Assembly: GCA_949045875.1 (NCBI GenBank)
Contig: CARPYP010000001.1
Span: forward strand, 57,166 to 121,165
DNA from: an uncultured Clostridia bacterium
Lineage (GTDB): Bacteria > Bacillota > Clostridia > TANB77 > CAG-508
Direction: 5' to 3'
Length of the DNA stretch: 64,000 nt
The position numbers and the translations under genes were made by a program. Each line of letters begins with the position of its first letter. The stretch's first letter is position 1. Shown piece after piece: positions 1 through 36,163 of this stretch. The notes under the pieces were generated by a model, which saw only the letters and a list, made by a program, of their open reading frames with translations, ran no database searches and had not been told where the DNA came from.

Positions 1-1660
1 TGTCTTCATCATGTTCTACAACTAATACTGAGTTTCCTAAGTCTCTTAGTTTTTTTAGTGTTGCTATTAGTTTTTCATTGTCTCTTTGATGTAATCCTAT
101 ACTTGGTTCGTCTAATATGTAAAGCACTCCTGTTAGACTTGAACCTATTTGAGTTGCAAGACGTATACGTTGCGCTTCTCCTCCTGATAATGTTCCTGCT
201 GGTCTTGATAATGTTAAATATTCAAGTCCCACATCTAATAAAAATTGTAGCCTTTTATTTAGTTCTTTTAATATCATATCTGCAATCATTGCTTCTTGTT
301 TTGTTAATTTTAGATTATTTAAAAATTCCTTTATTTTATCTATTGACATTTCTGTTAGTTCATTAATGTTTTTTTCTTCAATTTTTACTGCTAAACTTTC
401 TTTTTTTAGTCTTGCTCCTTTACATATAGGACAGTCTGATTCACTCATGTACATTTCATAGAAATCTCTCATTCCTTGTGATTTCGTTTCATTGTGCCTT
501 CTTTCTAATGTTGGAATTACTCCTTCAAATGGAGTTGTGAATTTTCTTACCCCGAATGGAGATTCATATTCAAAGTCTATTTTTTCATCTCCTGTACCAT
601 ATAAGATTTTTTCCAAAAATTCTCTTGGTAATTTTTTTATTGGTTGTTTTATATTGACTCCATAATATTTTCCAATACTTTCAAAGTACATTTTTGCCAT
701 AGTGTCCCCTTTTTTCATTGTGCTTGAACCAAATGCTTTTACACCATCATATAAAGTTTTATTCTTATCTGGAATTATTAGGTCTTCGTCCATTTTCATT
801 AAATATCCAATTCCTGTACATGCTGGACATGCACCAAATGGATTATTAAATGAGAACATCCTTGGTGTTAGTTCTTCTATACTTATTCCACAGTCTACAC
901 ATGAGTAATTTGTGTTATACATTTTTTCGTATTTATTGTCTTTTTCTGAGATTTCAACTAATACTATGTTATTTGCATTTTTTAAAGATACTTCTATTGA
1001 TTCTGCTAACCTGTTCCTAATGTCTTCTTTTATAACTAATCTATCTACTACTAATTCTATATTGTGTTTTTTCTTTCTATCTATTTGTATATCATCTGTT
1101 AGTTCTACCATTTCTCCATCTATTCTGGCTCTTACAAATCCTTGCCTTTGATAACTTTCTAATTGTTTTACAAATTCTCCTTTTCTTCCTCGTATGATTG
1201 GGGCTAAAATTTGAATTTTAGCTCCTTCTGGTAATTTTAATATATCATCTATTATTTGGTCTAATGTTTGTTTTTCTATTTTCTTTCCACAGTTTGGGCA
1301 GTATGCTACACCTATTCTTGCATATAATAAACGAATATAGTCATATATTTCTGTTACTGTTCCTACTGTTGACCTTGGATTTTTTGATGTTGTTTTTTGG
1401 TCTATTGATATTGCTGGTGAAAGTCCTTCTATTGATTCAACATCTGGTTTTTCCATTATTCCTAAAAATTGCCTTGCATATGAGGATAAACTTTCTACAT
1501 ATCTTCTTTGACCTTCTGCATATAATGTATCAAATGCTAAGGATGATTTTCCTGAACCTGAAAGCCCTGTAATTACAACTAATTTGTCTCTTGGGATTTC
1601 AAGGTTTATGTTTTTTAGATTATGTTCTTTTGCTCCTTTTATTACTATCTTATCATTCAT
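1..1660 (-). CDS. uvrA: Excinuclease ABC subunit A (UvrA), N-terminal ~553 aa; 3' part lies beyond window start
   Basis: Reverse-strand translation from 1660 gives [67 protein letters not shown]. The frame continues through [38 protein letters not shown] (UvrA ABC signature). The ORF is open at the window edge. Confidence 0.9.
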
Positions 1661-1772
1661 TTCGTCATTCCCTTTTTTATATATTTTGTGTCAAACACTG
1701 ATATATTTTATCATATTTATTTTATATATTCAATAGTTTTTACAAATTTTTGTTTGTAAACTTAGATTTATT

Positions 1773-1800
1773 TAAGGACGCCTCCTTGGGCGTCCTTACG
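1773..1800 (-). terminator. GC-rich hairpin (aaggacgcc-tccttg-ggcgtcctt) downstream of the BceB-like permease gene
   Basis: Perfect 9-bp GC stem in AT-rich intergenic DNA, 13 nt after the stop at 1813. Confidence 0.5.
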
Positions 1801-1812
1801 TGGCTTTATATT

Positions 1813-3918
1813 TTAATTTCCATTTACATTTCTTTCAAATTGTATATCTGTTGCAATAAAATATATTCCATATACTAGTATAAACATTCCAAGTATTATT
1901 GCAATATTTTTTAAAATTTCTTCTATTGTTACTGCTATTGTAAATATGTTTCCAATAATTATTATTGCTGGTATGCTTACTATAATTGGAATTAGTAATG
2001 GAATAGCAAAATACATGAATAGTTGTTTAAATATTATCCTATTAGTTTGCAATTCGTCAATTCCTAATTTTTTTAATAGTTCATATCTGTATTTATATTT
2101 CTCTGATTCACTTAATTGTTGTATTGCAAGTAATGTAGCGGTTGCCATTACAAAGATTAATGCTATATAAAAGGCTAAGAATGAAATTATTGCATAAAAT
2201 GATTTTGATTCACTTATTCTTTCTCCTCTTGTCTGAACACTTCCATGTGGTATTTCCATATGGTATTCTTCTGTTTTTCCGTCAATTTCTCCTATAAGTG
2301 GTATATGCTCTCTTTTTATGAACTCTTTTAAATCATTATAGAATTTTTCATTTGTAGCTTCTTCTGTTTGTACAACTAAATTATAACTATAATCAAATGT
2401 GTAGATATTTGTTTCTCCATATTCTTGCTCATCTTTAATTTGTCCTTCTTCTGTATTAACTTGATTTTTTAATTTTGCTTCTTCTTCACTTATTAATGGA
2501 ATTAAACTATCTGGTACTATAATTGTATAGATATATCCATTAAATCCAATTTGTGCTAAATGTTCACCTTTAATATCTTTTATTTTCATATTTTTATTTA
2601 CTATTGTTATTATATCACTTTCTTGCTTGAATTGTTCAAGTATTTTTTCTGCTGTTTTTAAAGAATGAATAATAATTTCATCTTCTTGTAAATTCATTTT
2701 TTCGTATCCAAGTATTTCCCTTAATCTATTATATTCTGTTAAACCTAATATACATTCTAGTTCATTCTCTGTAGTTCCTTCAAATACTGTTCCTTTAAAT
2801 GCCTTTGATATATTTAAATTTCCAATATTATATATTCTATATTCATACATATCTTTTATTTTTGCATTTTCTTTTATGTATTGTTTGAATTTTGTAAAAT
2901 CACCGTCATCTGTACTAATCATGATTTCATATGGATAACCCATTTCTAATTCGTTGCTTAACATATTATTTAAGAGTAATGCTACATTTCCTCCTATTAA
3001 TATTATTGTAAACATTACAGCTATTGTTCCAATTGTTACACTCATTGTATTAATTTTTGATGTTAGGTTTCTAAATAAAAACATATTGTCTTTTTTGTAT
3101 TTTTTTGATTTGTTGTCTAAGTACCTTTTTACTATAAAACTAGATATACTAATATAGAATAGATAAATTCCTATTATTAGCATTATTATTGCTATAAATA
3201 CATTTCTAGCATTCATATTTTCTGGCGATTTGAATTCTTTATTTGTTAAAAACAAAGCTCCTATTAATAAAATTATTGATAATATAAATATTACTATATT
3301 TCCTTTTGATTTTTTTATTATACTATTTTCGTTTTTCTTGTCTGCATATAGTAAATCGTGTACTTTTGTCTTGTTTATTTTTCTTCTACAATTTAATAAT
3401 ACTAATACAAATATACCAAAAAAGTAGATTGATGTCATCCATATTGCTTTTAAATTAAAAGATATTCCAATTTGATATGGTTGATTAAATAGTTTCATAA
3501 TTATTGTAGTGAATATCTGATATAAGAATGTTCCTACTCCAATTCCTATTAAAAATGCTATACTTCCTATTATAAGATTTTCTAGTGTAAACATATTACT
3601 AATTGATTTTTTCTCTATTCCTAATATCTCATATATCCCAAATTCTTTGCTTCTTTTTTCTAGCATAAATTTCATTGTGTAATTTATTAACCAAGACATA
3701 ATTAAAATAATGATTATACTTATTCCTGTGATACATTTTGAAAAGCTTTGCATATATGTTGATAATTCATTTATATCTTCTGATACTGCTATCGAGTTGA
3801 AACTAAACATTAGTGATACTGATATTATTACTGTTATAAAGTATATGATATAATCTTTTGCTTGTCTTTTTGCATTTCTTAAAGATAATTTACCTAACAT
3901 TTCTTTGGTCACCTCCAA
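1813..3918 (-). CDS. BceB-like ABC transporter permease (FtsX-family, 10 TM with large extracellular loop)
   Basis: 701 aa. Predicted TM-helix pattern with a ~220-aa hydrophilic loop between late TM helices. Overlaps the upstream ATPase gene, as in bceAB operons. Confidence 0.8.
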   Translation of the reverse strand: MEVTKEMLGKLSLRNAKRQAKDYIIYFITVIISVSLMFSFNSIAVSEDINELSTYMQSFSKCITGISIIIILIMSWLINYTMKFMLEKRSKEFGIYEILGIEKKSISNMFTLENLIIGSIAFLIGIGVGTFLYQIFTTIIMKLFNQPYQIGISFNLKAIWMTSIYFFGIFVLVLLNCRRKINKTKVHDLLYADKKNENSIIKKSKGNIVIFILSIILLIGALFLTNKEFKSPENMNARNVFIAIIMLIIGIYLFYISISSFIVKRYLDNKSKKYKKDNMFLFRNLTSKINTMSVTIGTIAVMFTIILIGGNVALLLNNMLSNELEMGYPYEIMISTDDGDFTKFKQYIKENAKIKDMYEYRIYNIGNLNISKAFKGTVFEGTTENELECILGLTEYNRLREILGYEKMNLQEDEIIIHSLKTAEKILEQFKQESDIITIVNKNMKIKDIKGEHLAQIGFNGYIYTIIVPDSLIPLISEEEAKLKNQVNTEEGQIKDEQEYGETNIYTFDYSYNLVVQTEEATNEKFYNDLKEFIKREHIPLIGEIDGKTEEYHMEIPHGSVQTRGERISESKSFYAIISFLAFYIALIFVMATATLLAIQQLSESEKYKYRYELLKKLGIDELQTNRIIFKQLFMYFAIPLLIPIIVSIPAIIIIGNIFTIAVTIEEILKNIAIILGMFILVYGIYFIATDIQFERNVNGN

Positions 3919-4687
3919 GAAGTGCTAATACATCTAATATTTCATTATAGAATTCTTTTGTTTGTTTTTCTCCTTTTTCTATCTTATTAAAAATTTTTCC
4001 GTCTTTTACGAATAAAATTTTACTACAGTAACTTGCAGATAATGGATCATGTGTTACCATTAGAATTGTGGCTTTCATGTTTTTATTCATGTCTTCCATT
4101 ATTTCTAATAATTGTTTTGCTGATTTACTGTCTAGGCTTCCTGTTGGTTCATCTGCTAATATTATTTTGGGTCTGTTTATTATTGCTCTACTACACGCAC
4201 ATCTCTGTTTTTGTCCTCCTGATACTTGATATGGATATTTATTTAATATTTCTTCTATTCCTAATTTTTGTGTAATTTCTTCTATTTTTTTATCAATTTC
4301 TTTTTGTGGAATTTTATTTATTGTTAATATTAAAGCAATGTTTTCTTCTATTGTTAATGTGTCTAATAAATTAAAATCTTGAAATATAAATCCTAAATTT
4401 TTTCTTCTAAATTTACAGATTTCTTTTTCTTCTATTTCTGTAATGTCTTGCTCATCTAAATAAATATGCCCTGAACTTACTGTATCTATAGTTGATATAC
4501 AGTTTAGAAGTGTTGTTTTACCACTTCCACTTGCTCCCATTATTCCTATAAATTCCCCTTCTTCTACATCAAAACTAATACCATCTATTGCTTTTGTTAT
4601 ATTGTCTTTATTTCCATAGTATTTTTGTATTTTTTCTACTTTTAATATTTTTTTCAAAGTATTCACTCCTTTATTTTTTGATTTCAT
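3890..4687 (-). CDS. BceA-like ABC transporter ATP-binding protein
   Basis: 265 aa. Walker A GASGSGKTTLLN, ABC signature VSGGQKQR, Walker B ILADEPTGSLD. Confidence 0.9.
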   Translation of the reverse strand: MKSKNKGVNTLKKILKVEKIQKYYGNKDNITKAIDGISFDVEEGEFIGIMGASGSGKTTLLNCISTIDTVSSGHIYLDEQDITEIEEKEICKFRRKNLGFIFQDFNLLDTLTIEENIALILTINKIPQKEIDKKIEEITQKLGIEEILNKYPYQVSGGQKQRCACSRAIINRPKIILADEPTGSLDSKSAKQLLEIMEDMNKNMKATILMVTHDPLSASYCSKILFVKDGKIFNKIEKGEKQTKEFYNEILDVLALLGGDQRNVR

Positions 4688-4764
4688 ATTAAGTTTATAT
4701 TATTTTTTATTAGTTTCATATAGAAGTAGTTTGCTTTTATCTTACAGTTTTGTAATATTTCTTT

Positions 4765-5775
4765 CTATTCCCCCTTTTTACTTTTTGGAATTTTTAGGTT
4801 TATTTGGGTATATTCATTTTCTTTGCTTTGCGCTTCTATTTCTATGTTTAGTTCTTTACATAATTTATTACATAGATACAGCCCTATTCCTGTTGACTTT
4901 TTGTTTAATTTTCTTCCATTTGTTCCTGTAAAACCTTTTTCGAATATTCTGTTTATTTCACTCTCTTTTATTCCTATTCCATTGTCTTTTATTAATATTT
5001 TTATGTCCTCTTTGTTTTCTATTGCTTCTATTGTTACTTTTGAGTCATATTCTTTTTTATATTTTATTGCATTTATTATTATTTGATTTAATATGAACTC
5101 TAGCCATTTTTCATCTGTATAGACTGATACATCAATATTTCTTATTTCTACTTTCATATTGTTTTGTATCATTATTTTTTTATTTCTTGCGAGTACATTT
5201 TTTATTATTTCTGCTATTTCTATTTTTCTTATCATGAAATCATTTGATACTTGCTCAAGTCTTGCATAAAATAAGGCTTGTTCTACAAAGTTATTGATTT
5301 CCTCTAATTCTTCATCTATTTTATTTGTTATATCTGATTTATTATTTTCACATAATAGTTTTGCTGATGTGATTGGTATTTTTATCTCATGTACCCAACT
5401 TTCTATGTATTCTTTATATTCCTTTTTTGAATATATTATTTCTGATACATTGTCTATCATAGATTTATTAGCTTTTTTTAATATTTTATAATATGCTAGA
5501 TTTTCTTCTCTTCTAGGTTTTTTAATTATTTCTGATATTAAATATTTCTCTTGTAAGCCTTCCATAGTTTTTTCTATATCTTTTATATATCTATTTTTTA
5601 TAATATAACTTGTAATAAATCCCACTATAAAAAATATAGTAGGCATTATTGATATAACTAATACTACATTTTTATCTACTCCCATAGCATTTGTATAGCT
5701 TATTATTATGATGATATATATTATGTATGCTAATATAAAATTTATTTTATCTTTTATGTATCTACCCAATTTCAT
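4765..5775 (-). CDS. Intramembrane-sensing sensor histidine kinase (BceS-like)
   Basis: 336 aa. Two N-terminal TM helices with almost no extracellular loop. HisKA/HATPase region (GIGLYLCNKL). 4-nt overlap with the RR gene. Confidence 0.8.
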   Translation of the reverse strand: MKLGRYIKDKINFILAYIIYIIIIISYTNAMGVDKNVVLVISIMPTIFFIVGFITSYIIKNRYIKDIEKTMEGLQEKYLISEIIKKPRREENLAYYKILKKANKSMIDNVSEIIYSKKEYKEYIESWVHEIKIPITSAKLLCENNKSDITNKIDEELEEINNFVEQALFYARLEQVSNDFMIRKIEIAEIIKNVLARNKKIMIQNNMKVEIRNIDVSVYTDEKWLEFILNQIIINAIKYKKEYDSKVTIEAIENKEDIKILIKDNGIGIKESEINRIFEKGFTGTNGRKLNKKSTGIGLYLCNKLCKELNIEIEAQSKENEYTQINLKIPKSKKGE

Positions 5776-9965: not shown

Positions 9966-10205
9966 TTATTTATGCCCTTTTATATATTCTACTACATCCC
10001 CTACTGTTACAATTTTATCTGCGTCTCCATCTGGAATTTCCATTTCAAATTCTTCTTCTATATTCATTACTAGTTCTACAATGTCTAAAGAGTCTGCTGA
10101 TAAATCATCTACAAATGTTGCTTCTTCTTTTACATTTTCTTCATCTACTCCTAATTGTTCAATTATTATTTTCTTTAATTTTTCAAAAATATCTTCTCTA
10201 TTCAT
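9966..10205 (-). CDS. acpP: Acyl carrier protein
   Basis: 79 aa, acidic, [10 protein letters not shown] phosphopantetheine-attachment motif. Confidence 0.9.
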
Positions 10206-14107: not shown

Positions 14108-14140
14108 TTTTATCTCCTTTTCATATTGATGTTTTTGTAG

Positions 14141-14212
14141 GGGCACGTTGCACGCACGTGCCCTTTTTGAATTTATCTCCTTCTAACGGGCACATGCAAT
14201 GTGCCCCTACAT
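14141..14212. repeat. Inverted pair of GC-hairpin repeat elements (TTGTAGGGGCACG..CGTGCCC and GGGCACAT..ATGTGCCCCTACATC)
   Basis: Two members of the dispersed GGGCAC/GTGCCC + CCCCTACA family in opposite orientations, inside the accC-fabZ intergenic gap. Confidence 0.6.
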
Positions 14213-14726: not shown

Positions 14727-15176
14727 TTATTTTATGACGAACAATGGTGTACCATACTCCACTGTATCTCCGTCTTTTACTAAAATTTCTGTTATTTTTC
14801 CAGAGAATTCTGATTCTATTTCATTCATTAATTTCATAGCTTCTATTATACATAGTGTTTCTCCTTTTGTAACTTCTTTTCCTATTTGTACATAAGGATC
14901 AGAGGTTGGAGATGGTTTTATGTAAAAGGTTCCAACCATTGGAGATTTTACTATGTTACCTTGTATTTCTTCTGTGTTTATTTGTGTAGTTATTTCCTCG
15001 TTTGTTATTTTGGTTTCTATTGATTTTGTTACATTTTGAGGGCAATTAATGTTTGCCTCTACATTTGTTTGTTTCTTCATACTGATTTTGGTTCCATCTG
15101 GGAATTCAATATCTATGTCTGTTAATTTTGAATTTCCCATGTCTTCCATTAATTGTTTTATTTTTTCATATTCCAT
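14727..15176 (-). CDS. accB: Biotin carboxyl carrier protein
   Basis: 149 aa. Biotinylation motif [10 protein letters not shown] near the C-terminus. Confidence 0.9.
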
Positions 15177-15189
15177 TTTTTATCTTTCC

Positions 15190-15259
15190 TTTCTATTGAA
15201 TTTATTATTAATTTATGATATCATACATTGACATAAAACTACGAGGAGGTATCGTAAAT
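15190..15259. promoter_or_regulatory. Duplicated divergent control block, copy 1 (accB RBS/start on the minus strand; candidate promoter and GGAGG RBS for the + strand small gene)
   Basis: cttgaatttattattaatttatgatat..aggaggt is near-identical to the block at 16887-16952 upstream of fabF. The minus-strand side reads aattcaaNagaaaggaaaNataaaaaATGGAA in both copies. Confidence 0.5.
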
Positions 15260-15565
15260 ATGAAATTAGGAAGTTTTTTTGAGAGTGCTATTTCACTTCG
15301 GAAAATGTATCACAAGCAATGGCTAAAAAAAGATGTAAATGCCTATCTAAAGATGGATATTTTGCAACAAATAGTCGACTCTGTTTTTACAAATGGAGAT
15401 TATCCTTTTCAATACTCAATTTCTTGCTCTTCTTCAAATGAGAAAATTATAGTTAAACTTGCTAAAGAAGTGTTTGAAGATTTGTTACTTACAGTAATCT
15501 TTGCATACTCCTATGATGGATGTTGCATATTTCAATCTATAACTCCATTTTTCTACACACTTTGA
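15260..15565 (+). CDS. Hypothetical ~101-aa protein encoded antisense within the fab operon (paralog A)
   Basis: GGAGGT 8 nt upstream of ATG. Own hairpin+T-run terminator. Shares motifs with paralog B (KMDILQQIVDSVFTNGDYP vs KIHIISQIVEEIFEEGSLP). Confidence 0.55.
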   Translation: MKLGSFFESAISLRKMYHKQWLKKDVNAYLKMDILQQIVDSVFTNGDYPFQYSISCSSSNEKIIVKLAKEVFEDLLLTVIFAYSYDGCCIFQSITPFFYTL

Positions 15566-15577
15566 ATGATACCAATC

Positions 15578-15617
15578 TGCGCCCTCACCTTTGTATTACA
15601 GATGTGAGGGACGTTTT
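15578..15617 (+). terminator. Rho-independent terminator (gcgccctcac..gtgagggacg + TTTTTT)
   Basis: Stem-loop followed by a T-run on the + strand, directly after the 15565 stop. Confidence 0.6.
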
Positions 15618-15634
15618 TTATTAGTATCATACAA

Positions 15635-16873
15635 CTATTCTTCATAATTTCTTATAATGATACTGGCATTATGTCCACCAAATCCCAACGAATTTGACAT
15701 TACAACATTTAATTTTTCTTTTATTGGTTCATTTGGTACTATGTCTAAATCACATTCTTCGTCTTTTTCTTTATAGTTTATTGTTGGTGGTACTATTCCA
15801 TTTTCTATTGCTTTTACACAGATTACTGCTTCTACTCCTCCTGCTGCTCCTAATAAATGCCCAATATTTCCTTTTGTTGAACTTACTTTTACTTTTTTAC
15901 TTGCTTCTCCTAATGCTGTTTTTATTGCTAGTGTTTCTGTAGAATCATTTAAATGTGTTGATGTTCCATGTGCATTTATATAATCAATATCTTCTGGTTT
16001 GATACCAGCATCTTCTATTGCTCTTATCATTGCTTTTGCTCCACCTTCTCCATTTGGGTTAGGTGATGTTATGTGATATGCGTCTGTTGTGCTTCCAAAT
16101 CCGATTAGTTCTGCATATATTTTTGCTCCTCTTTTTTTAGCATGTTCTAATTCTTCAAGTACTACTATTCCTGCACCTTCTCCCATTACAAATCCGCTTC
16201 TTTCTTTGTCGAATGGAATACTTGCTCTGTTTTTATCTTCTGATGTACACAATGCTTTCATGTTTTCAAATCCTGCTATTCCAATAGAACAGATTGAGGC
16301 TTCTGTTCCTCCTGCTATTATTACATCTTCATATCCTTGTTTTATAGTTTTATATGCTTCTCCTATTGCATGTGTTGATGAAGCACATGCAGTTACTATT
16401 GAGATGGATTCTCCTTTGAAACCAAATTCTATTGCAATATTTCCTGCTGGCATGTTTGCTATTGCCATTGGAATGAACATTGGAGATACTCTATTGTTTC
16501 CTTTTACATAGTTTGTTTCACATTGTTCTTGTATTGTTTTTAATCCTGCTATTCCTGAACTTACAAAAACTCCCACTCTTTCATAATTTGTATTTTCTTC
16601 TGTGATACCACTATTTTTTACTGCTTCTCTTGCTGCTATTACTGCAAATTGTGATGATTTATCAAATCTTTTTGCTTGTTTTTGCTCAAAGTATTCTAAA
16701 GGGTCATATTCTTTTATTTCTCCTGCTAGTTTTGTCTTGAAATTGTCTGTATCAAATAATGTGATTTTGTCAATACCACATTCTTTGTTTTCTATTCCAT
16801 TCCATGTTTCATTAGAATCTTTTCCTATTGGAGTTATTGCTCCAAGTCCTGTAATTACAACTCTTTTTTCCAT
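15635..16873 (-). CDS. fabF: 3-oxoacyl-[ACP] synthase II
   Basis: 412 aa KAS II. Active-site region SIVTACASSTHAIGEA and HGTSTHLND. Confidence 0.9.
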   Translation of the reverse strand: MEKRVVITGLGAITPIGKDSNETWNGIENKECGIDKITLFDTDNFKTKLAGEIKEYDPLEYFEQKQAKRFDKSSQFAVIAAREAVKNSGITEENTNYERVGVFVSSGIAGLKTIQEQCETNYVKGNNRVSPMFIPMAIANMPAGNIAIEFGFKGESISIVTACASSTHAIGEAYKTIKQGYEDVIIAGGTEASICSIGIAGFENMKALCTSEDKNRASIPFDKERSGFVMGEGAGIVVLEELEHAKKRGAKIYAELIGFGSTTDAYHITSPNPNGEGGAKAMIRAIEDAGIKPEDIDYINAHGTSTHLNDSTETLAIKTALGEASKKVKVSSTKGNIGHLLGAAGGVEAVICVKAIENGIVPPTINYKEKDEECDLDIVPNEPIKEKLNVVMSNSLGFGGHNASIIIRNYEE

Positions 16874-16886
16874 TTTTTTATTTTCC

Positions 16887-16952
16887 TTTCTCTTGAATTT
16901 ATTTTTAATTTATGATATATTAATAAAAAACCACAAGGAGGTATTTGTAAGT
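16887..16952. promoter_or_regulatory. Duplicated divergent control block, copy 2 (fabF RBS/start on the minus strand; promoter and RBS of + strand paralog B)
   Basis: cttgaatttatttttaatttatgatat...caaggaggt. See copy 1. Confidence 0.5.
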
Positions 16953-17255
16953 ATGACAAATTGGGAAAACTTTGTTACCAACGCTTGGGTTCTACGGAAT
17001 CATTATGAAAATGATAATGTTCCAAACTCAAAGTTAAAAATTCATATCATTTCTCAAATAGTTGAGGAGATCTTTGAAGAAGGTAGTCTGCCTTCTCATT
17101 TAGTAATTGATGACGAATTTAAAGACGTCAGTGCCTTATTGGATGCTTCTACATCTGTACTAAAAGATTTAAATCTTGAAATGTACAAACTATTAATATC
17201 TGCTAATTGTGATGTAGAAAAATCAATAAGTACAGTTTTATTTGAATTAAGTTAG
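16953..17255 (+). CDS. Hypothetical ~100-aa protein encoded antisense within the fab operon (paralog B)
   Basis: GGAGGT RBS. The ORF track lists a longer 16602..17255 frame, but the RBS-proximal ATG is at 16953. Own terminator follows. Confidence 0.55.
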   Translation: MTNWENFVTNAWVLRNHYENDNVPNSKLKIHIISQIVEEIFEEGSLPSHLVIDDEFKDVSALLDASTSVLKDLNLEMYKLLISANCDVEKSISTVLFELS

Positions 17256-17261
17256 AGCCTA

Positions 17262-17300
17262 TCGAAGCCTTTATTCTGTGTACTATGCAGAATAGGGGCT
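17262..17300 (+). terminator. Rho-independent terminator (imperfect stem gcctttattctg/cagaataggggc + T8)
   Basis: Hairpin then tttttttt, immediately after the 17255 stop. Confidence 0.55.
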
Positions 17301-17308
17301 TTTTTTTA

Positions 17309-18076
17309 TTACATAATCATTCCACCATCTACATTAATAACTTGCCCTGTTATGTATGAACTCTCCTCTGAGACTAAGAATTTTACAACATTTGCAACAT
17401 CCTCTGTTTTGCCCATTCTTTTTAGAGGAATAGATTTTGCAATTTCTTCTTTTATTTCGTCTTTTAATACATCTGTCATTCCAGTTTCTATAAATCCTGG
17501 TGCTACTGCATTTACTAATATTCCTCTTGATGCCACCTCTTTTGCTAAACTTTTTGTAAATCCTATCATCCCTGCTTTTGACGCTGAATAGTTTGTTTGA
17601 CCAGCATTTCCTGCTACTCCTACAACAGATGATATATTTATTATTCTTCCTGAACGTGCTTTCATCATATGACTAATTACATTTTTAGTTACATTAAATG
17701 TTCCTACTAAGTTAGTATCTATTACGTCTTCAAAGTCTTCTTTTTTCATTCTCATTAATAGCGTATCTTTTGTAATTCCTGCATTATTTACTAATACATC
17801 TATTTTTCCATATTCTTCTATGATTTCTTTTACAAATTTTTCACAGTCTTCAAAATTTGATACATCTCCTTGTACTGTTAAACATTTTACCCCTTTTTCT
17901 TCTATTTGTTTTTTTGTTTCTTTTAATGCATCATTTTCTGTTCTATAATTTATTGCTATATCATAGCCATTTTGAGCTAATGTTAAGGCTATTTGTTTTC
18001 CTATGCCTCTTGTGGCTCCTGTAATTAATGCGGTTTTGTTCATTTCTTCCCTCCATTTTATTATTTTATAGTACAA
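17309..18076 (-). CDS. fabG: 3-oxoacyl-[ACP] reductase
   Basis: 255 aa SDR. TGATRGIGK NAD(P)-binding motif, catalytic YSASKAG. Confidence 0.9.
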   Translation of the reverse strand: MYYKIIKWREEMNKTALITGATRGIGKQIALTLAQNGYDIAINYRTENDALKETKKQIEEKGVKCLTVQGDVSNFEDCEKFVKEIIEEYGKIDVLVNNAGITKDTLLMRMKKEDFEDVIDTNLVGTFNVTKNVISHMMKARSGRIINISSVVGVAGNAGQTNYSASKAGMIGFTKSLAKEVASRGILVNAVAPGFIETGMTDVLKDEIKEEIAKSIPLKRMGKTEDVANVVKFLVSEESSYITGQVINVDGGMIM

Positions 18077-18084
18077 TATAGAAA

Positions 18085-18258
18085 TAATTAATAATTAATC
18101 AATTCGAAAAATTATTTAAATGAAATTGAATTAGAAAATGTTAGAAATTAATTTATAGGGAATCTCGAGCGTGATGAGAGGGCGCTGTAAATTAATTTAT
18201 TACATTTTATATGAAATTGAATTGTATAATTTTGAGAATTTATTAATTCATTAATTAT
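18085..18258. mobile_element. MITE-like repeat element, degenerate copy 1 (between fabD and fabG)
   Basis: ~165 nt alignable to the element at 39686-39861. Same GC-rich core GGGAATCTCGAGCGTGATGAGAGGGCGCTG flanked by AT-rich inverted arms. Termini are degenerate versions of the 21-bp TIR. Confidence 0.55.
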
Positions 18259-18259
18259 T

Positions 18260-19189: not shown

Positions 19190-19768
19190 CTAATATTCAA
19201 TCCTTTCATATAATTCTTTTTCAAATCTGTTACAGAATTCTGTGATAAATTCTTCTGTATTTATGTCTATATTAAATTCCCTTTTTATTGATGTTGCTAT
19301 ATTTTCTATGTCTTTACTAAAGTTTTGTTTTTTAGTGTTTATCCCAATTCCAACTACTAGATATTTCACATTTTCTGAAATTATTTTTGTTTCTGTTAAA
19401 ATTCCACCTATCTTTTTGTTTCTATATATTATATCATTTGGTTCTTTTATTTCTAGTTTTAAGTTATATTGTTCTTCTATAATTTTATTTATTATTTTTG
19501 CTATTTCTATTGTTATTCCTTCTAATTTTTTTATATTACAATCCATTTGTATGAATAATGAAAATGCTATATTTCCTTTTTCGTCTGTATGCCATATTCT
19601 TCCATGAGTTCCTTTTCCTTTTGTTTGTATTTCTGCTATTACTAATGTTCCATTTGTTATAGTTTTATCTTGTATTAATCTCCAGATTTCACTTTGGGTT
19701 GAGTCTATTTCTTTATAATAAATTATGTTTCTTCCTAAAAAATTAGTTTTTAACTTTTTCAATTGCAT
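19190..19768 (-). CDS. Biotin--[acetyl-CoA-carboxylase] ligase catalytic domain (no N-terminal HTH)
   Basis: 192 aa. KGKGTHGRIW BPL motif. Sits at the head of the acc/fab cluster. Confidence 0.75.
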   Translation of the reverse strand: MQLKKLKTNFLGRNIIYYKEIDSTQSEIWRLIQDKTITNGTLVIAEIQTKGKGTHGRIWHTDEKGNIAFSLFIQMDCNIKKLEGITIEIAKIINKIIEEQYNLKLEIKEPNDIIYRNKKIGGILTETKIISENVKYLVVGIGINTKKQNFSKDIENIATSIKREFNIDINTEEFITEFCNRFEKELYERIEY

Positions 19769-21461
19769 CTAAATTGTCCTGCCTTTTTATTTTATTTGTT
19801 GTTGTTTTTATTAGTGGTTCTTCTGTTAGTATTATTCCTTTTATTGCTTTGTATTTTGGCATTGTTTTGTTTATTTCCTTTATCTTGCTTGCTAAAACAT
19901 CATGTATTTCTTCATCTGCTTCTACTTTGTAAACATCTTTTATTATTTCTCTATTAAATACTATTTTTACATTTATTTTTATGTCATTTTTATCTTCTGA
20001 TTGCTTTTTACCGAATACAAATGATTCTTCTACACCTTCTATTTTGTTTACTAGGTTTTCCATTTCTTCTGGGAATATATTTTTACCATTTTTTAGTACT
20101 ATTACACTTTTCTTTCTTCCGCAAATGTATATATACCCTTCTTCATCTATTCTAGCTAAGTCCCCTGTATAGAACCATTCATCTTTTATAGCTTCATTTG
20201 TTGCTTTTTTATTGTTAAAATATCCTAACATAATGCTTGGTCCTCTTACAATAAGCTCTCCTATACCTTCATCATTTGCATTTACTATTTTTGCTTCAAC
20301 ACTTGGTACTGTTTTTCCTATTGAACCTGTTTTATAATATTTATTTGTTCCAATTGCTACAACTGGAGAGGTTTCTGTTAAACCATATCCTTGTACTATA
20401 TTTATTCCAAGTAGTCTATATTTTTCTTCTATTTTTGGGTCTAAAGCTGCTGCTCCACTTATGAATAATTTTACTTTTCCACCAATCATATTATGTATTT
20501 CTTTAAATACTTCTTTTCTTTGTTCCATAGAAGCATTTTTATATTTTTCTTCGTTCTCTAATATTTCTTCTAGCTTGCCTTGTCTTTCTATTTGCTTTCT
20601 AATATTCATAAAGATTCTTTCATATATTGCTGGAACACATGCCATTACTGTTACATTATATTCTTTTAAGTTTTCTACTACATGCCTTAATCCATCACAA
20701 AATACTGTTTGAGCTCCTTTATATAGCGAAAATAAAAATCCTACTGTACATTCAAATACATGATGTATAGGTAATATTGAAAGTAGGACGTCTTCTGATG
20801 TAACATCTATAATGCTTCCAATATCCATTAAGTTTGAACATATATTTTTATGAGATAATGCTACTACTTTTGATTTTGATGTTGTTCCAGATGTAAATAG
20901 CATTATACTCATTTCTTCTGCATTTATCTCTGCATTAATGAATTCTCTGTTTCCTTTGTCTATAAGCTTTTTGCCTGTTTCTATTAGCTCTTTTTGTGAG
21001 TAAATTCCCTCTGAGTGTGAATTTAAATCCATTGCTATTAGATGTTTAAGTTTATTTTTATGACTATATCTTATCTTTTTTATGCTTTCTTCATATTTTT
21101 TTGAGTAAAAAATAGCTTCTATTTCTGACCTTTCTATTAATTCTTTTAATTCATTTTCTGGCAATGATTTATCTAATGGCACAACTATCCCAGTTCCACA
21201 AACTATTGATAAATATGCAATTTCCCATTCATACCTGTTTTCCCCAATTACAGCTATTCTTTTTCCTTTTAATCCCAAGTTTATTAGAGATGTTCCTAGA
21301 GCCTCTATCATTTCTCTTATTTCATTGTGTGTAAAAATTTCATATTTTCCATTTTCTATTTTTATTTTATAGGCTGGCTTTTCTCCATATAGTTTTTTAG
21401 TTTTATTTAACATATCTTTTAAATCTGTTATTTCTAAATGATCGTATATTCGCTTATCCAT
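19743..21461 (-). CDS. Long-chain fatty acid--CoA ligase / AMP-dependent synthetase (FadD-like) 1
   Basis: 572 aa. AMP-binding motif TSGTTSKSKVV, GYGLTETS. Confidence 0.8.
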   Translation of the reverse strand: MDKRIYDHLEITDLKDMLNKTKKLYGEKPAYKIKIENGKYEIFTHNEIREMIEALGTSLINLGLKGKRIAVIGENRYEWEIAYLSIVCGTGIVVPLDKSLPENELKELIERSEIEAIFYSKKYEESIKKIRYSHKNKLKHLIAMDLNSHSEGIYSQKELIETGKKLIDKGNREFINAEINAEEMSIMLFTSGTTSKSKVVALSHKNICSNLMDIGSIIDVTSEDVLLSILPIHHVFECTVGFLFSLYKGAQTVFCDGLRHVVENLKEYNVTVMACVPAIYERIFMNIRKQIERQGKLEEILENEEKYKNASMEQRKEVFKEIHNMIGGKVKLFISGAAALDPKIEEKYRLLGINIVQGYGLTETSPVVAIGTNKYYKTGSIGKTVPSVEAKIVNANDEGIGELIVRGPSIMLGYFNNKKATNEAIKDEWFYTGDLARIDEEGYIYICGRKKSVIVLKNGKNIFPEEMENLVNKIEGVEESFVFGKKQSEDKNDIKINVKIVFNREIIKDVYKVEADEEIHDVLASKIKEINKTMPKYKAIKGIILTEEPLIKTTTNKIKRQDNLDAIEKVKN

Positions 21462-21527
21462 TTTTTATACATTTCCCTCCGTTGTATTAAAGTTATTTTT
21501 CATTTATTGAGTTTAAGTTTTCATATA

Positions 21528-23261
21528 TTAAGTCGGAAAAGAATTATTAATGATTCTTTTCATTTCTTCTTGGCGTTTAATTTTTTTAGTGGTAGTCTTA
21601 ATCAATTCCTCACTACTTAAAATCATATTTTGAATATGTTTATATCTAGGAAAAGTAGTATTTAATTTTTTTATTTCATCCCAAATAATTTTAAATAATT
21701 CATTTTCGGATTTATCTTTATATTTTTCTTGTGCAACTTCTTTACTATATACAATTTTTACTGATAATTTCACATCATTTTTATCATTTTCATCTGGTAA
21801 ACCAAAAACGAAACATTCTTCTACTAATTCTATTCTATTTATTAAAGTTTCTAGTTCTTCTGGAAAAACTTTTTTTCCATTTTTTAGAACTATCATATTT
21901 TTATTTCTACCTGTTATAATCAAATATCCTTTTTCATCTATATAGCCTAAATCTCCTGTATAGAACCACCCATCTTTTAATACACTTTCTGTCTCTTCTG
22001 GCATTTCATAATATCCTAACATTACATTTGGTCCTTTTACTCTTATTTCTCCTATACCGTTTTCATCTTTGTTTGCAATTTCCATAGTTACATTAATCAT
22101 TGGTAATCCTACTGAACCATTTTTCATGTGTTTATTATCTTCTGCCGCTATTACTGGTGATGTCTCTGTTAGACCATAGCCTTGTACTGTTTTTATTCCT
22201 AAGTTATTAAATCCTTTTGATATTTCTGGGTCTGCTGGTGCACCTCCAGATATAACAAATCTTAATTCTCCTCCTAATGCTTCTATTACTGGTTTGAATA
22301 ATTTTCTTCTTATGTCAATATGGAATTTTAGTAAAAAATTACTTATTTTCATTGCGTTTTTTATTAATTTCGTTTTTCCTTGTTTTTCTATTTCTTTCAT
22401 TATTGTTTTATATATTGCTTCTACTAATAAAGGTACTCCAATGAATAAAGTTACTTTATATTCGTTTAAATTTTGCTTAATATATCTTAACCCATCTGGA
22501 AATACAGTTTTCACTCCTGTTGCTAACATCATTAACATTCCTGTTGAACCAAATATATGATGGAATGGCAAAAATGCAATATTTGTATCTGTTTCCCTAA
22601 TATCTTCTACACATTGCATTGCATATATATTTGAAGCTACATTTCTTTGGGATATCATTACTGCTTTTGATTTTGATGTTGTTCCTGATGTAAATAATAA
22701 TATATTCATTGCATTTTCATCTATTTGTGCATTTATATAGTCTTTTTTTCCTTCTTGTAATAATTTATCTCCATCATTTATAAGTTTTTTTACAGATTCG
22801 AAGCCTTCTATTTCTCCCATACATATGTATTCTTTTAAGCATGTTTTATTTTTTTCTTTTATTTCTAGCATTTTCTCTGTTAGTTTTTCATCAAAAATTA
22901 TACATTCTGCTTTACTTCTAATTAATGAGTTTTCAAGTTCATCATATTGTAAATCTTTGTCTAATGGTACAGATACTATTCCCCCAAGTAAGTTTGACAA
23001 ATGTGCTAATGCCCATTCATATCTGTTTTTTCCAATAACAGCTATCCTTTTTCCTTTAAACCCTTTTTCATAAAGCATTGTTCCTAATTTATTTATGTCT
23101 TCTAATAATCCTTTATATGAAATGTTTTCATAAGTTACTTCTTTGTTTTCTTGATGTTTTATTACAAATGCTGTTTTTTCATTGTATTTCTTAGCTGATT
23201 CATAAATTATCTCTTTGACACTTTTAAATTCTTTGGCTTCAAATAATTTTCTATTTTCCAT
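21528..23261 (-). CDS. Long-chain fatty acid--CoA ligase / AMP-dependent synthetase (FadD-like) 2, paralog
   Basis: 577 aa. TSGTTSKSKAVM, GYGLTETSP. Roughly 45% identity-level similarity to the neighbouring paralog by eye. Confidence 0.8.
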   Translation of the reverse strand: MENRKLFEAKEFKSVKEIIYESAKKYNEKTAFVIKHQENKEVTYENISYKGLLEDINKLGTMLYEKGFKGKRIAVIGKNRYEWALAHLSNLLGGIVSVPLDKDLQYDELENSLIRSKAECIIFDEKLTEKMLEIKEKNKTCLKEYICMGEIEGFESVKKLINDGDKLLQEGKKDYINAQIDENAMNILLFTSGTTSKSKAVMISQRNVASNIYAMQCVEDIRETDTNIAFLPFHHIFGSTGMLMMLATGVKTVFPDGLRYIKQNLNEYKVTLFIGVPLLVEAIYKTIMKEIEKQGKTKLIKNAMKISNFLLKFHIDIRRKLFKPVIEALGGELRFVISGGAPADPEISKGFNNLGIKTVQGYGLTETSPVIAAEDNKHMKNGSVGLPMINVTMEIANKDENGIGEIRVKGPNVMLGYYEMPEETESVLKDGWFYTGDLGYIDEKGYLIITGRNKNMIVLKNGKKVFPEELETLINRIELVEECFVFGLPDENDKNDVKLSVKIVYSKEVAQEKYKDKSENELFKIIWDEIKKLNTTFPRYKHIQNMILSSEELIKTTTKKIKRQEEMKRIINNSFPT

Positions 23262-23456: not shown

Positions 23457-25463
23457 TTACACATTCTCTATAACTTTATTTTCTTTCTGCTTTACTATTC
23501 CACAAATTAGGTCTGCTGTTTTTTCTACTCCTAGAGTTTCGCTATTTATTGATATATCATAGTTTTCGTTATTGCTCCATTCTTTTTCTGTATAGTGTTT
23601 ATAATGATTTGCTCTTAATTTATTTATTTTTTGTATTTCCTTTTTTGCGTTTTCAATTCCATAAATCTCTTTAACTCTTTTTATTTTATCTTTCATATCA
23701 CTATATATAAATACTTTTATTACATCTTCTCTATCTTTTAATATGAAATCTGCACATCTACCTATAATTACACAAGATTCCTTTTCTGCAATTTGTTTTA
23801 TTACTTCTGATTCTTTTATAAATAGTTCGTCTGAATAGTTTAATCCAAAGTAATATCCATTGTTTAAATTTTCTAGTATTTCTCTTTTCTGTTCATGATT
23901 TTCTATATATTCTTCTGATAATCCAGTTTCTTCTGCTACTTTTTTTATGAATTCTTTATCATATAATTTTATTCCTAATTTATCTGCAATTAATTTTCCT
24001 ATATATCTTCCACCTGAGCCATATTCTCTTGATATTGTTATTACAGTATGCTCTTTTAATTTGTTGTCTGTAATTGTGTCTTCTTCTATTACATTACTTT
24101 TTGATGTTCTCTTACTCAAATTTTTTGCCTCTAAAGCTATCAATACTACTGCAAGCACAAATGCTATTCCATCTGCTACTGGTCCTGAATATAGAACTCC
24201 CATAATTCCAAACATACTGCTTAATATTATCATTGATGGTATTAAAAATCCAATTTGTCTTGATAATGATAAAATTACACTTTTTACACTTTTTCCTATT
24301 GCTTGGAAAAATATTCCTGCTGGAATTTGTATTCCATTACAGATACATAATAGTAAATATGTTCTAAATGATAAACATGCAAATTCCATATATAGTTCAT
24401 CACCACTACCAAATATAGAAATTAACTTATCTGGTATTGTTTGGAATAATATGAAAGCAATTGTACTAATTATAACACTTAATCCTAATACCAATTTTAA
24501 TGTTTGTTTTACTCTATCAAATTTTCTTGCTCCATAATTGTACCCAAATATTGGTTGTGAACCTGCTGCAATTCCGATTATTATACTATTTAATATTTGG
24601 CTTATTTTCATAACAATTCCTAATACTGTTATTGGTATTTCTGAACCATATTTTGATTGTGCTCCATATTTCGCAAGTAAATTGTTTTCAAATGCCATAA
24701 CAACTACAAAACTCATTTGTGTTACAAAACTACTTATTCCTAATGTCGATATTCTTTTTAATACATTAAATTTGATTTTGAATGTTTCTTTTGTTAATGT
24801 TACTGATTTGAATTTTTTTATGTACATAATGTTTATTGCAAATGTTATAAATTGACTTAATACTGTTGCTATTGCTGCTCCTTCTATTCCCATTTTAAAT
24901 GCAAATATGAAAATTGGGTCTAGTATAATGTTTATAACCGCTCCTAATACCATGGATGTCATTGCATATTTTGGGCTTCCGTCTGCTCTAATTATTGAGT
25001 TTAATGTAGTTCCTATCATCATAAATGGTAACCCAATTGCTATAATTCTTCCATATCCAATTGCGTAGTTTCTTAATGCATCTGTACATCCAAACATATT
25101 TAATAATGGCGATAAAAATATTAATGTAAATATGCAAAATATAATTGCTATTATTATAGATAATGTAATTGCATTTCCTACACCTTTTTCTGCTTCTTCT
25201 TTCTTTTTTTCTCCTAGTTTTAAACTTAAGTAGGCTGATGCACCATCTCCTATCATTAATGAAAATGCTAAACATATCATTGCTAATGGAAATACTACAT
25301 TTGTTGCTCCATTTGCTAAATAATCTACTCCCCAACCAATAAATATTTGATCTACAATATTGTATAATGCGTTTACTAATAGTGATATTATACATGGAAT
25401 TGAGAATTTTATAATTAATTTTTGTATTTTTTCACTTCCTAATATATTTTCTTCTTTTTCCAA
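23457..25463 (-). CDS. MATE-family efflux transporter fused to a C-terminal cytidylate-kinase-like (AAA_28-type) domain
   Basis: 668 aa. N-terminal ~455 aa has 12 predicted TM helices with MATE repeats. C-terminal ~200 aa carries ISREYGSGGRYIGKLIADKLG, a cytidylate kinase-like P-loop. Single continuous frame. Confidence 0.7.
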   Translation of the reverse strand: MEKEENILGSEKIQKLIIKFSIPCIISLLVNALYNIVDQIFIGWGVDYLANGATNVVFPLAMICLAFSLMIGDGASAYLSLKLGEKKKEEAEKGVGNAITLSIIIAIIFCIFTLIFLSPLLNMFGCTDALRNYAIGYGRIIAIGLPFMMIGTTLNSIIRADGSPKYAMTSMVLGAVINIILDPIFIFAFKMGIEGAAIATVLSQFITFAINIMYIKKFKSVTLTKETFKIKFNVLKRISTLGISSFVTQMSFVVVMAFENNLLAKYGAQSKYGSEIPITVLGIVMKISQILNSIIIGIAAGSQPIFGYNYGARKFDRVKQTLKLVLGLSVIISTIAFILFQTIPDKLISIFGSGDELYMEFACLSFRTYLLLCICNGIQIPAGIFFQAIGKSVKSVILSLSRQIGFLIPSMIILSSMFGIMGVLYSGPVADGIAFVLAVVLIALEAKNLSKRTSKSNVIEEDTITDNKLKEHTVITISREYGSGGRYIGKLIADKLGIKLYDKEFIKKVAEETGLSEEYIENHEQKREILENLNNGYYFGLNYSDELFIKESEVIKQIAEKESCVIIGRCADFILKDREDVIKVFIYSDMKDKIKRVKEIYGIENAKKEIQKINKLRANHYKHYTEKEWSNNENYDISINSETLGVEKTADLICGIVKQKENKVIENV

Positions 25464-27747: not shown

Positions 27748-27749
27748 TC

Positions 27750-28102
27750 CTTTCTTTATTTATTGTTTTATCATATAAGGGCACAGTGGTGCCCCTACAA
27801 GTAAAATTTATTTCATAAATTTTCCACGCTTTTTATTCCTAAATATACCTTTTGTTTCGTTCCTTTCTTTATGTATTGTTTTATTATATAAGGGCACAGT
27901 GGTGTCACTTCCCTCTTCGAGCCCAGTTAAATTTGGCGTTGCCAAATTTATCGTAGGTATTCCCGCAAACGGTGCCCCTACAAGTAAAATTTATTTCATA
28001 AATTTTTCACGCTTTTTCTTATTTTACTTTTTCTTTTATTCTTCTGTATAGAAATGCTTGTAAAATTTATTTCATAAATTTTCCACGCTTTTTATTCCTC
28101 CA
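27750..28102. repeat. Three imperfect tandem copies of an intergenic unit (AT palindrome AAAATTTATTTCATAAATTTT + CCACGCTTTTT). Two copies carry the GGGCAC..GTGCCCCTACAAG hairpin; one hairpin has a 67-nt insert in the loop
   Basis: Units at ~27750-27840, 27863-28027 and 28060-28102. The second unit has tcacttccctcttcgagcccagttaaatttggcgttgccaaatttatcgtaggtattcccgcaaacg inserted between the hairpin arms. Confidence 0.65.
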
Positions 28103-35494: not shown

Positions 35495-35776
35495 ATGTTT
35501 GATGATTTACTAAGAGAAACTGCATTTAATTACAACTTACGGAAATGTAAAAAAACTAAAAAATTTTTTAAGGAAGTGAAAAAGGGCTTATTAAAAAGTG
35601 CTAAAGGCTTATCACATGACAAAAAAATAGCTTCATTCTCAATAGATGCTCATCTCTCAGAGAACGGTTATATCAAACTTAAAAAGCTATGTGATAAAAA
35701 TGGGATCAATTTTGCAACCAAATATGTCGACTGTTTTCTAAATACTTATGAATTTAGTATAGTAGTTCGGCAATAG
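35495..35776 (+). CDS. Hypothetical 93-aa basic protein
   Basis: GGAGG RBS 7 nt upstream of ATG. Followed by a hairpin (aagtgggaaata..tatttcccactt). Confidence 0.5.
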   Translation: MFDDLLRETAFNYNLRKCKKTKKFFKEVKKGLLKSAKGLSHDKKIASFSIDAHLSENGYIKLKKLCDKNGINFATKYVDCFLNTYEFSIVVRQ

Positions 35777-35832
35777 CATAAGTGGGAAATATCTGGTGTT
35801 ACCAGTATTTCCCACTTCTCCTAATTCATATT

Positions 35833-36000: not shown

Positions 36001-36163
36001 ATATATAACCTCCTTTTTAAAACTGTTTTGAATTACTTTTCGTACTTAACCAATCTAATAAAGAAGGTAAATATTCTAAAATAAATTCTTTTTTTGTTTC
36101 TTCTTCGAAACTTCTTTTACTATATCATATATATGAATAAAATTCAAGAAAAATACAAGATTT

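Follow-up and report, generated by a model that had tools for sequence, protein, structure and literature searches.

We describe a family of small proteins encoded antisense within the fatty-acid synthesis operon of one lineage of Clostridia. The reference is a stretch of 64,000 nucleotides (nt) from an uncultured Clostridia bacterium (GenBank assembly GCA_949045875.1, contig CARPYP010000001.1, positions 57,166 to 121,165 of the forward strand), here called 'the window', whose own coordinates are used throughout. Two open reading frames (ORFs) of the + strand, ORF1 and ORF2, occupy spacers of the fab/acc gene cluster, which lies on the - strand, and each stands between a predicted promoter and a predicted terminator of its own in a compact unit that we call a cassette. 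ORF1 and ORF2 are genuine protein-coding genes of a previously undescribed, lineage-restricted small alpha/beta family. The anatomy of the cassettes, the constraint on the proteins, the conserved predicted fold, the exclusive linkage to fab genes and the turnover between strains are established. Their layout is of a known architectural kind; the protein family that it carries is new. The distinctive features are the presence of several paralogous antisense cassettes in one essential operon, a distribution exclusive to one pathway, a confidently predicted fold without a close known relative, and exchange within species. We found no report in the literature of antisense protein-coding cassettes inside fab operons.

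The window has a G+C content of 27.8%, and a long run of - strand genes in it includes, by Pfam assignment, the cluster for type II fatty-acid synthesis (FASII) and acetyl-CoA carboxylase. Along the direction of transcription, two genes for FadD-like AMP-ligases and a birA-type gene are followed by fabD-fabG-fabF-accB-fabZ-accC-accD-accA-fabI-acp. ORF1 (15260-15565, + strand, 101 amino acids) lies between accB and fabF, and its paralogue ORF2 (16953-17255, + strand, 100 amino acids) lies between fabF and fabG. The gene for beta-ketoacyl-acyl carrier protein (ACP) synthase II, fabF (15635-16873, - strand; Pfam ketoacyl-synt and Ketoacyl-synt_C), therefore has a cassette on either side. In operon direction, accB (biotin carboxyl carrier protein [BCCP]; 14727-15176, - strand; Pfam Biotin_lipoyl, E = 1.6e-23) is the gene directly downstream of the ORF1 cassette, and fabG (3-oxoacyl-ACP reductase; 17309-18043, - strand, with an alternative start at 18076; Pfam adh_short_C2, E = 4e-70) is upstream of the ORF2 cassette; the fabG ATG at 18043 is preceded by a GGAGGG ribosome-binding site (RBS). 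The two spacers measure 435 nt (fabG>fabF, named in operon direction) and 458 nt (fabF>accB), and the other gaps of the gene run 2-216 nt. Neither of the two holds a - strand ORF of at least 35 amino acids. ORF1 and ORF2 thus split the accB/fabF/fabG run of - strand genes, which is the arrangement of an opposite-strand gene within an operon. The operon's neighbourhood consists of fab/acc genes, birA, the FadD-like ligase genes, alr, ddl and ABC transporter genes; no phage genes lie near the cassettes, and the PHROGs scan was without a match.

The regions upstream of ORF1 and ORF2 share 84% mean column identity over 141 aligned columns. They contain a 37-mer, TTTCCTTTCTMTTGAATTTATTWTTAATTTATGATAT (two degenerate positions), which occurs at exactly two sites in the 64 kb, 15185-15221 and 16882-16918, and was absent from all 100 shuffles, even when three mismatches were tolerated. 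Control block 1 (15185-15259, + strand) comprises a -35 box TTGAAT (15196-15201), a 17-nt T-rich spacer ending in TG and a -10 box TATCAT (15219-15224), and continues with a short 5' untranslated region and the RBS GAGGAGG (15243-15249). Control block 2 (16882-16952, + strand) has the same -35 box at 16893-16898, TG followed by a -10 box TATATT at 16916-16921, and the RBS AAGGAGGT at 16935-16942. A promoter scan predicts sigma-70-type promoters with an extended -10 TG at 15196-15224 and 16893-16921, and in both ORFs a GGAGG site stands 8-10 nt ahead of the ATG. Read on the opposite strand, the blocks carry the RBS and the ATGGAA start of accB or fabF: the left end of block 1 holds the accB RBS AGAAAGGAAAG, that of block 2 holds the fabF RBS, and the -35 boxes lie only ~19 nt from the start codons of these two genes.

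Each ORF is followed by a predicted intrinsic terminator on the + strand. That of ORF1 (15579-15620) is a hairpin with a U-run (-19.0 kcal/mol, z = -3.96) and ends 14 nt from the fabF stop codon; that of ORF2 (17264-17308) is an 18-bp stem followed by T8 (-21.9 kcal/mol, z = -4.69) and abuts the fabG stop codon at 17309. The two are unrelated to each other in sequence. On the fab (-) strand the same hairpins fold more weakly and no U-run lies behind the stem; none of the five terminator-like sites between 9800 and 23600 is on the - strand. The promoter scan likewise found no convincing - strand promoter in the control blocks, with the sole exception of the palindrome ATGATATCAT in cassette 1, which forms an extended -10-like element on either strand. 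Each cassette fills the space from one fab gene's stop codon to the RBS of its downstream neighbour, and we take the cassettes to be self-contained antisense units that, to judge from these signals, are probably strongly expressed.

A preliminary description, made from the letters of the window, had already placed two genes opposing the fab operon at these positions, with near-identical upstream blocks and a hairpin plus T-run for each gene, and translation of the ORFs, Pfam assignment of their neighbours, alignment of the blocks and folding of the hairpins bear it out on all these points. It had also held that the duplicated block includes the RBS and start of the divergent fab gene. These signals are present, but the fabF RBS need not belong to the duplicated module, because AGAAAGGA also serves as the fabF RBS in relatives with compact operons; on the same ground, we rejected the fab-gene RBS as a piece of a mobile module. 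An operator within the promoter spacer was rejected as well, since the positions conserved across cassettes are the standard -35, TRTG and -10 elements. A search of metagenomes with a 26-nt promoter pattern was uninformative, returning three unrelated contigs (L103 to L105), of which L103 is G+C-rich and has no fab genes and L105 has no ORF of at least 70 amino acids.

The two proteins are 25% identical (BLASTP E = 2e-7). AlphaFold models, for which a 23-sequence family alignment served as input in both cases, are confident (pLDDT [predicted local distance difference test] 91.9 and pTM [predicted template modelling score] 0.84 for ORF1; 87.2 and 0.80 for ORF2) and give the two paralogues an identical predicted topology, alpha-alpha-beta-alpha-beta-beta, that is, a helical hairpin followed by beta-alpha-beta-beta. 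In ORF1, helices span residues 3-22, 26-45 and 61-74, and strands span residues 51-55, 79-85 and 88-93. Neither ORF1 nor ORF2 matched a model in PHROGs or PADLOC, and no Pfam or NCBIfam model matched the family members scanned (28 and 23, respectively), among which the stray scores all had E > 0.006 and none was common to more than two members. A sequence-profile search of the PDB gave nothing below E = 0.026; structure searches gave no fold match, and viral predicted structures gave no match. The nearest structural neighbours are ACT-like (ferredoxin-like) and Alba-type proteins, a partial and sub-threshold likeness in which only about half of the cassette protein aligns. The beta-alpha-beta-beta-alpha-beta topology of ACT domains is incomplete in the models, and the N-terminal helical hairpin has no counterpart in any of these folds; the proteins are not ACT domains. 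Public sources attach no name to either protein. Members from different junction types have the motifs F..A..LR..Y, K..IL.QIV, G..P..F.I and L.DLGY in common, while their isoelectric points (pI) span 4.3-9.9 and their grand averages of hydropathy (GRAVY) run from about -0.5 to +0.5. Descent from the antisense strand of a decayed acpP was considered and is unsupported: searches of the cassette DNA with ACP (tblastn and hidden Markov model) gave noise-level scores on inconsistent strands, the ACP model reached at most 3 bits against six-frame translations of the cassettes, ORF1 and ORF2 have no PP-binding match, and the family profile does not pick up the ORFs that lie antisense to acpP in distant relatives.

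Single-sequence protein searches returned near-identical proteins only. A profile built from the two paralogues found 10 matches at E <= 1e-3 among 1.84 billion representative proteins, all of 93-119 amino acids, and a wider profile in a word-indexed search found 14 proteins, all of 82-136 amino acids and none with a Pfam domain. Overall, family members are 77-136 amino acids long, and homologues occur in more than 15 species. Wherever the flanks could be read, the member occupies a spacer within a fab cluster, in antisense orientation: at fabG>fabF for P0005 (locus L089), P0009 (L096), P0010 (L097) and P0011 (L098), at fabD>fabG for P0008 (L094), at accB>fabZ for P0015 (L100, which has a second cassette at fabG>fabF) and at fabZ>accC for P0018 (L102). 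No member was found by profile outside fab spacers in the 64-kb window or in the flanks of 88 loci. Alignments of the whole family offer no conserved stretch suited to scanning; subfamily scans of Joint Genome Institute (JGI) metagenomes and IMG/VR yielded no further loci, and viral contigs gave no matches for two subfamilies. The family is confined to the fab clusters of one lineage. L094, whose first 5,000 nt (1-5000) hold three members (at fabD>fabG, accB>fabZ and fabZ>accC), is a metagenome contig on which several genes of the cluster appear as fragments (fabF as 206 + 152, fabG as 56 + 187 and accC as 354 + 63 amino acids), perhaps through an assembly error or decay of the cluster.

The fab clusters of 80 species, retrieved by FabF similarity, place the cassettes in context. 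The 35 closest species are uncultured gut Clostridia known from metagenome-assembled genomes of human, rabbit, mouse and goat origin; their FabF proteins are 64-99% identical. Spacers in relatives measure 9-33 nt at fabG>fabF and 2-14 nt at fabF>accB, against 435 and 458 nt in the window. Thirteen species have spacers of 346-850 nt at fabG>fabF, fabF>accB, accB>fabZ, fabZ>accC or accD>accA, and all of these spacers but one (the 385-nt fabF>accB gap of L014) contain an antisense ORF of 77-122 amino acids. The number per cluster varies from zero to four among close species, the highest count being that of L010. With fabD>fabG, six junction types are occupied. The relatives' cassettes have one layout in common (downstream fab RBS, TTGAnT, T-rich spacer closed by TRTG, TATAAT-like box, short leader, GGAGG, ATG), a hairpin plus T-run follows the ORF, and shared motifs together with weak to moderate similarities link the ORFs into a network. 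In more distant bacteria (FabF at most 58% identical), a same-strand acpP fills a large fabG>fabF gap and there are no cassettes. The further suggestions of the preliminary description are partly supported: the paralogy of the two proteins and their membership in no recognised family both held, the proposed structure prediction gave two confident models, and the proposed survey of related Clostridia found orthologues in the fab position and their absence from most species. The collision with fab read-through that it expected is predicted here from the missing - strand terminator and the one-sided U-runs, and a regulatory role in fatty-acid synthesis would be a hypothesis beyond that. The variation of the cassettes among strains of one species, and the confinement of the family to fab clusters of one lineage, had escaped it. 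Duplication of the whole gene-plus-control-block module, which it had offered as an alternative, is strongly supported by the homologous antisense cassettes at six fab junction types.

Evolutionary rates indicate selection on the proteins. Across nine orthologous cassette pairs, the ratio of nonsynonymous to synonymous substitution rates (dN/dS; Nei-Gojobori method) is 0.07-0.54, from which we conclude that the proteins are under constraint. By type, it is 0.35 for ORF2 in the window versus L009, 0.16-0.27 for accB>fabZ cassettes (at dS of about 0.9-2.0), 0.07 for fabZ>accC and about 0.5 for fabG>fabF. Because the dS of the cassettes resembles that of the flanking fab genes and their dN is 2-10 times higher, the cassettes are long-term residents that evolve fast under purifying selection. 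ORF2 occurs in 12 sequence variants on more than 200 contigs, every one of exactly 100 amino acids, and variants of ORF1 are reported by gene callers on about 50 contigs. The G+C content at third codon positions (GC3) is 0.22-0.24 in the cassette ORFs and 0.12-0.21 in the fab genes. Decayed copies exist too: L014 has a truncated fabG>fabF ORF, and several species have spacers of 140-390 nt that lack an ORF.

Within the species, the cassettes turn over. L009 and L089 belong to the same species as the window (97-98.6% nucleotide identity over fab genes), and their alignments with the window break exactly at the spacers. At fabF>accB, the promoter block is preserved in L009 as far as the ATG, beyond which L009 has a different 85-amino-acid ORF, a different terminator and a repeat resembling a miniature inverted-repeat transposable element (MITE); L089 has only a 149-nt palindromic repeat there. 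At fabG>fabF, L089 retains the block as far as the RBS, from where it continues with P0005, which is nearer to ORF1 (37% identity) than to ORF2. The fabD>fabG, fabZ>accC and accC>accD spacers also differ among the three strains and contain MITE-like elements of kinds that are found at other places in the window too; every operon spacer is polymorphic within the species. One such element (14136-14211, strand not assigned) fills the fabZ>accC slot of the window. It has 17-nt terminal inverted repeats (TGTAGGGGCACGTTGCA / TGCAATGTGCCCCTACA, 94% complementary) and is separate from the cassettes, showing that other fab slots take insertions too. The core of the repeat, GTGCCCCTAC, has seven copies in the window against 0.5 expected, all in intergenic gaps; further MITE-like copies lie near 26668, 27789, 27972, 39887 and 48527, and the gap 27748-28091 holds a short and a long form together. 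Fab-spacer repeats in the other two strains (L009 7243-7717 and 8692-8864; L089 968-1118, 2464-2637 and 3533-3681) include a long form of the GGGCACAGTGGTGTCA...GGTGCCCCTACA element and a palindromic element of ~100 nt, GAAAAAGAATCGTTATTTGGC...GCCAAATGCGATTATCTTTC. The operon spacers are hot spots for insertion and exchange; the ORF family is restricted to these spacers, whereas the MITEs are not.

Tentatively, and as a possibility somewhat short of probable, we read the small proteins as accessory modulators or antagonists of FASII that are made as fab transcription falls, with active cassette promoters lowering the expression of downstream fab and acc genes. The fab transcript would read through each cassette in antisense, because the junctions hold no - strand terminator and no convincing internal - strand promoter. 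The small proteins would then be made mainly while fab transcription is low, and active cassette promoters could work as valves that reduce expression of the fab and acc genes beyond them. The exclusive genomic association suggests that the proteins act on FASII itself, for example by modulating or antagonising a neighbouring enzyme or the carrier protein. In broader terms, the predicted layout points to an accessory protein probably tied to fatty-acid synthesis and coupled reciprocally to fab transcription. Units of this kind would turn the FASII operon into a noncontiguous operon. In such operons, the operon and the antisense gene nested in it repress each other, and the nested gene tends to oppose the function of the operon (PMC11034616; PMC11087260); in the noncontiguous operon of phage 80-alpha, the defence nuclease Tha and its antisense-encoded inhibitor Ith are expressed mutually exclusively (PMC11087260). 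The cassettes resemble tha/ith and the Staphylococcus aureus menE-menC-MW1733-ytkD operon in that a gene is nested antisense among genes of one direction (PMC11034616; PMC11087260). A promoter of its own, as the nested gene has in those cases, is predicted here from the consensus -35 box, 17-nt spacer and extended -10 at both cassettes and at those of relatives. Overlapping transcripts and mutual repression, which define the class, would be expected here from the layout. Unlike those cases, up to four paralogous cassettes occur in one essential biosynthetic operon, and the nested genes form a single orphan family that is found in that operon only and is exchanged, lost or replaced between strains.

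A more specific form of this idea is that the cassettes are a new class of exchangeable, operon-embedded effectors dedicated to one essential pathway, each of which binds and tunes or inhibits a particular component of FASII or acetyl-CoA carboxylase. Through its antisense position, synthesis of each effector would be an automatic inverse read-out of fab transcription, and the set of cassettes would determine the level at which a strain sets lipid synthesis, or how it responds to a shut-off of transcription, for instance under phage attack; in this detailed form we think the idea unlikely.

Several observations weigh against a role in FASII control. The proteins show no recognisable ligand-binding, DNA-binding or catalytic motif, and the range of pI argues against one conserved electrostatic partner such as DNA or ACP. 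Transcription of either strand is a sequence prediction here, the promoter and terminator calls rest on consensus, and promoter-like sites are no commoner in the region than in shuffles. The cassettes are dispensable, most related species having compact operons with gaps of 0-30 nt; same-species strains replace or lack them, which suits a selfish or neutral element equally well; and generic MITE-like repeats also sit in fab slots, whose spacers may simply tolerate insertions.

Other known arrangements share parts of this architecture. Phage morons consist of a promoter, a gene and a terminator and are found inserted into prophage operons, between two of their genes. The cassettes are alike in being compact autonomous units placed exactly between adjacent genes that are contiguous in relatives, in varying among close relatives, and in their unknown or accessory function; they differ in residing in a chromosomal housekeeping operon, with no PHROGs, viral-structure or viral-contig match, and their base composition barely differs from that of the flanks. 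Excludons are long antisense untranslated regions that span neighbouring divergent or convergent operons. As with these, the convergent layout here predicts polymerase collision and double-stranded RNA sensitive to RNase III, but the antisense unit is short, terminated, protein-coding and wholly within one operon. Among regulators and partners of FASII (FapR, FabT, ACP and the PII-BCCP interaction), the likeness lies in small proteins encoded within the fab cluster. In contrast to FapR and FabT, the family gave no DeoR, MarR or hotdog match in its 28 (Pfam) or 23 (NCBIfam) members, and its predicted fold has no helix-turn-helix; in contrast to ACP, it has no PP-binding domain or DSL motif and is encoded antisense, where ACP is normally on the same strand. 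The variable pI argues against a surface for DNA binding or ACP mimicry common to the family. Type I toxins are usually hydrophobic membrane proteins of fewer than 60 amino acids under a dedicated antisense small RNA, whereas the proteins here have 77-136 amino acids, a predicted globular alpha/beta fold and the GRAVY values given above. Nor do the cassettes resemble MITEs or insertion sequences: the control block occurs at two fab sites only in the window and the terminators are unrelated, while the MITE at 14136-14211 in the same operon shows both terminal inverted repeats and dispersed copies.

The weightiest alternative to a role in FASII control, though in our view a rather doubtful one, is a selfish or near-neutral, moron-like cassette that spreads by duplication and homologous exchange and whose protein serves the cassette itself or a process unrelated to fatty acids. 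Such a cassette might persist, with the same doubt, because fab spacers tolerate insertion and imprecise deletion would harm essential genes. Patchiness among close species fits this account, as do the decaying copies and ORF-less remnants, the replacement within the species of ORF and terminator by another ORF (L009 and L089) or by a palindromic repeat (L089), the breakpoints of strain alignments at the edge of the conserved promoter block, the use of the same slots by MITE-like elements that occur genome-wide, and the slightly higher GC3 of the ORFs. A general insertion element would be expected to be dispersed, like the MITEs, yet members were found in fab clusters only, a result to which the unbiased protein-database searches contribute alongside the window and the flanks of the 88 loci. 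Moreover, junction-specific subfamilies co-diverge with host genes under purifying selection (as at accB>fabZ), which marks them as long-term residents, and the cassettes come without any associated transposase, recombinase, nuclease motif or terminal repeats. The same turnover, together with several paralogues per locus and the quick divergence of an orphan family (25% identity between the paralogues and dN/dS of about 0.5 between fabG>fabF orthologues), could also suit a conflict or defence module. Its effector would be silenced by fab transcription and released when host transcription collapses, as in a phage takeover, in the manner of abortive infection or addiction; phage 80-alpha tha/ith offers a precedent (PMC11087260). 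We consider this distinctly unlikely, as PADLOC, PHROGs and viral structures gave no match, no toxin, nuclease or NTPase partner gene lies nearby, two subfamilies have no viral-contig matches, and the restriction to fab clusters would be left unexplained.

The remaining alternatives turn on whether the protein matters at all. The cassette could be a purely cis-acting internal promoter, roadblock or insulator that sets fab/acc levels, its ORF being translated only to preserve the antisense transcript. The promoter block is conserved far above the coding sequence (35 of 37 nt agree, while the proteins are 25% identical) and stays in place while ORFs are swapped between strains, its -35 box comes close to the downstream fab start codon, and the palindrome in cassette 1 could fire both ways. 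Nevertheless, dN/dS well below 1, motifs conserved across junction types and the confident shared predicted fold imply selection on the protein itself, and what is conserved in the spacer amounts to ordinary promoter elements of Firmicutes (TTGAnT, T-rich spacer, TRTG, TATAAT), so that we regard this explanation as very unlikely. Chance ORFs in AT-rich spacer DNA, an idea to which the low G+C content of the genome and the lack of database names lend some colour, are effectively refuted by the purifying selection, the constancy of length over hundreds of contigs, a Shine-Dalgarno sequence at the right distance, the homologues in more than 15 species and the high-confidence structure predictions.

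Some further features of the cluster and the window may be recorded. No fabH was found in the window's fab cluster, where the FadD-like pair and the birA-type gene stand ahead of fabD (19190-23261); in the more distant relative L102, fabH lies between birA and fabD. The FadD-like AMP-ligases are paralogues of 572 and 577 amino acids whose DNA is ~66-67% identical, and the BirA-type biotin ligase is without a DNA-binding domain. The ACP gene of the window is at 9966-10205. The 216-nt fabD>fabG spacer (18044-18259) has no ORF and carries a duplicated ATGAAATTGAATT motif as well as a - strand promoter-like sequence (TTGATT, 16 nt, TATATT at 18102-18075) that could drive fabG; in other strains this spacer has ~65-85 nt of unrelated sequence. 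Elsewhere, two adjacent + strand ORFs (35495-35776 and 35782-36084; 93 and 100 amino acids) lie within another - strand run, between genes for a bactofilin-domain protein and a HAD hydrolase, and match neither Pfam nor the fab-cassette profile. A 668-amino-acid protein (23457-25463) appears to be a fusion of a MATE-family transporter (residues 11-442) with a cytidylate-kinase-like domain (474-654). An Rfam scan of the whole window gave no matches.

FapR and FabT are the known controllers of fatty-acid synthesis in Firmicutes. The fab cluster of this low-GC gut Clostridia lineage shows neither and carries a private family of antisense small proteins instead. If FASII is what these proteins act on, they would add new protein modulators to a pathway that is a target of antibiotics, and the operon would be a natural case of noncontiguous-operon logic repeated within one essential operon. 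If the cassettes prove to be exchangeable effectors, they would form a modular, horizontally swappable layer of fatty-acid control, unlike FapR, FabT and FadR. If they are selfish, gene-sized cassettes can colonise the spacers of an essential operon, and be exchanged there, while the operon survives, which would bear on the origin and persistence of orphan genes. In both cases, a new domain can be defined from the family.

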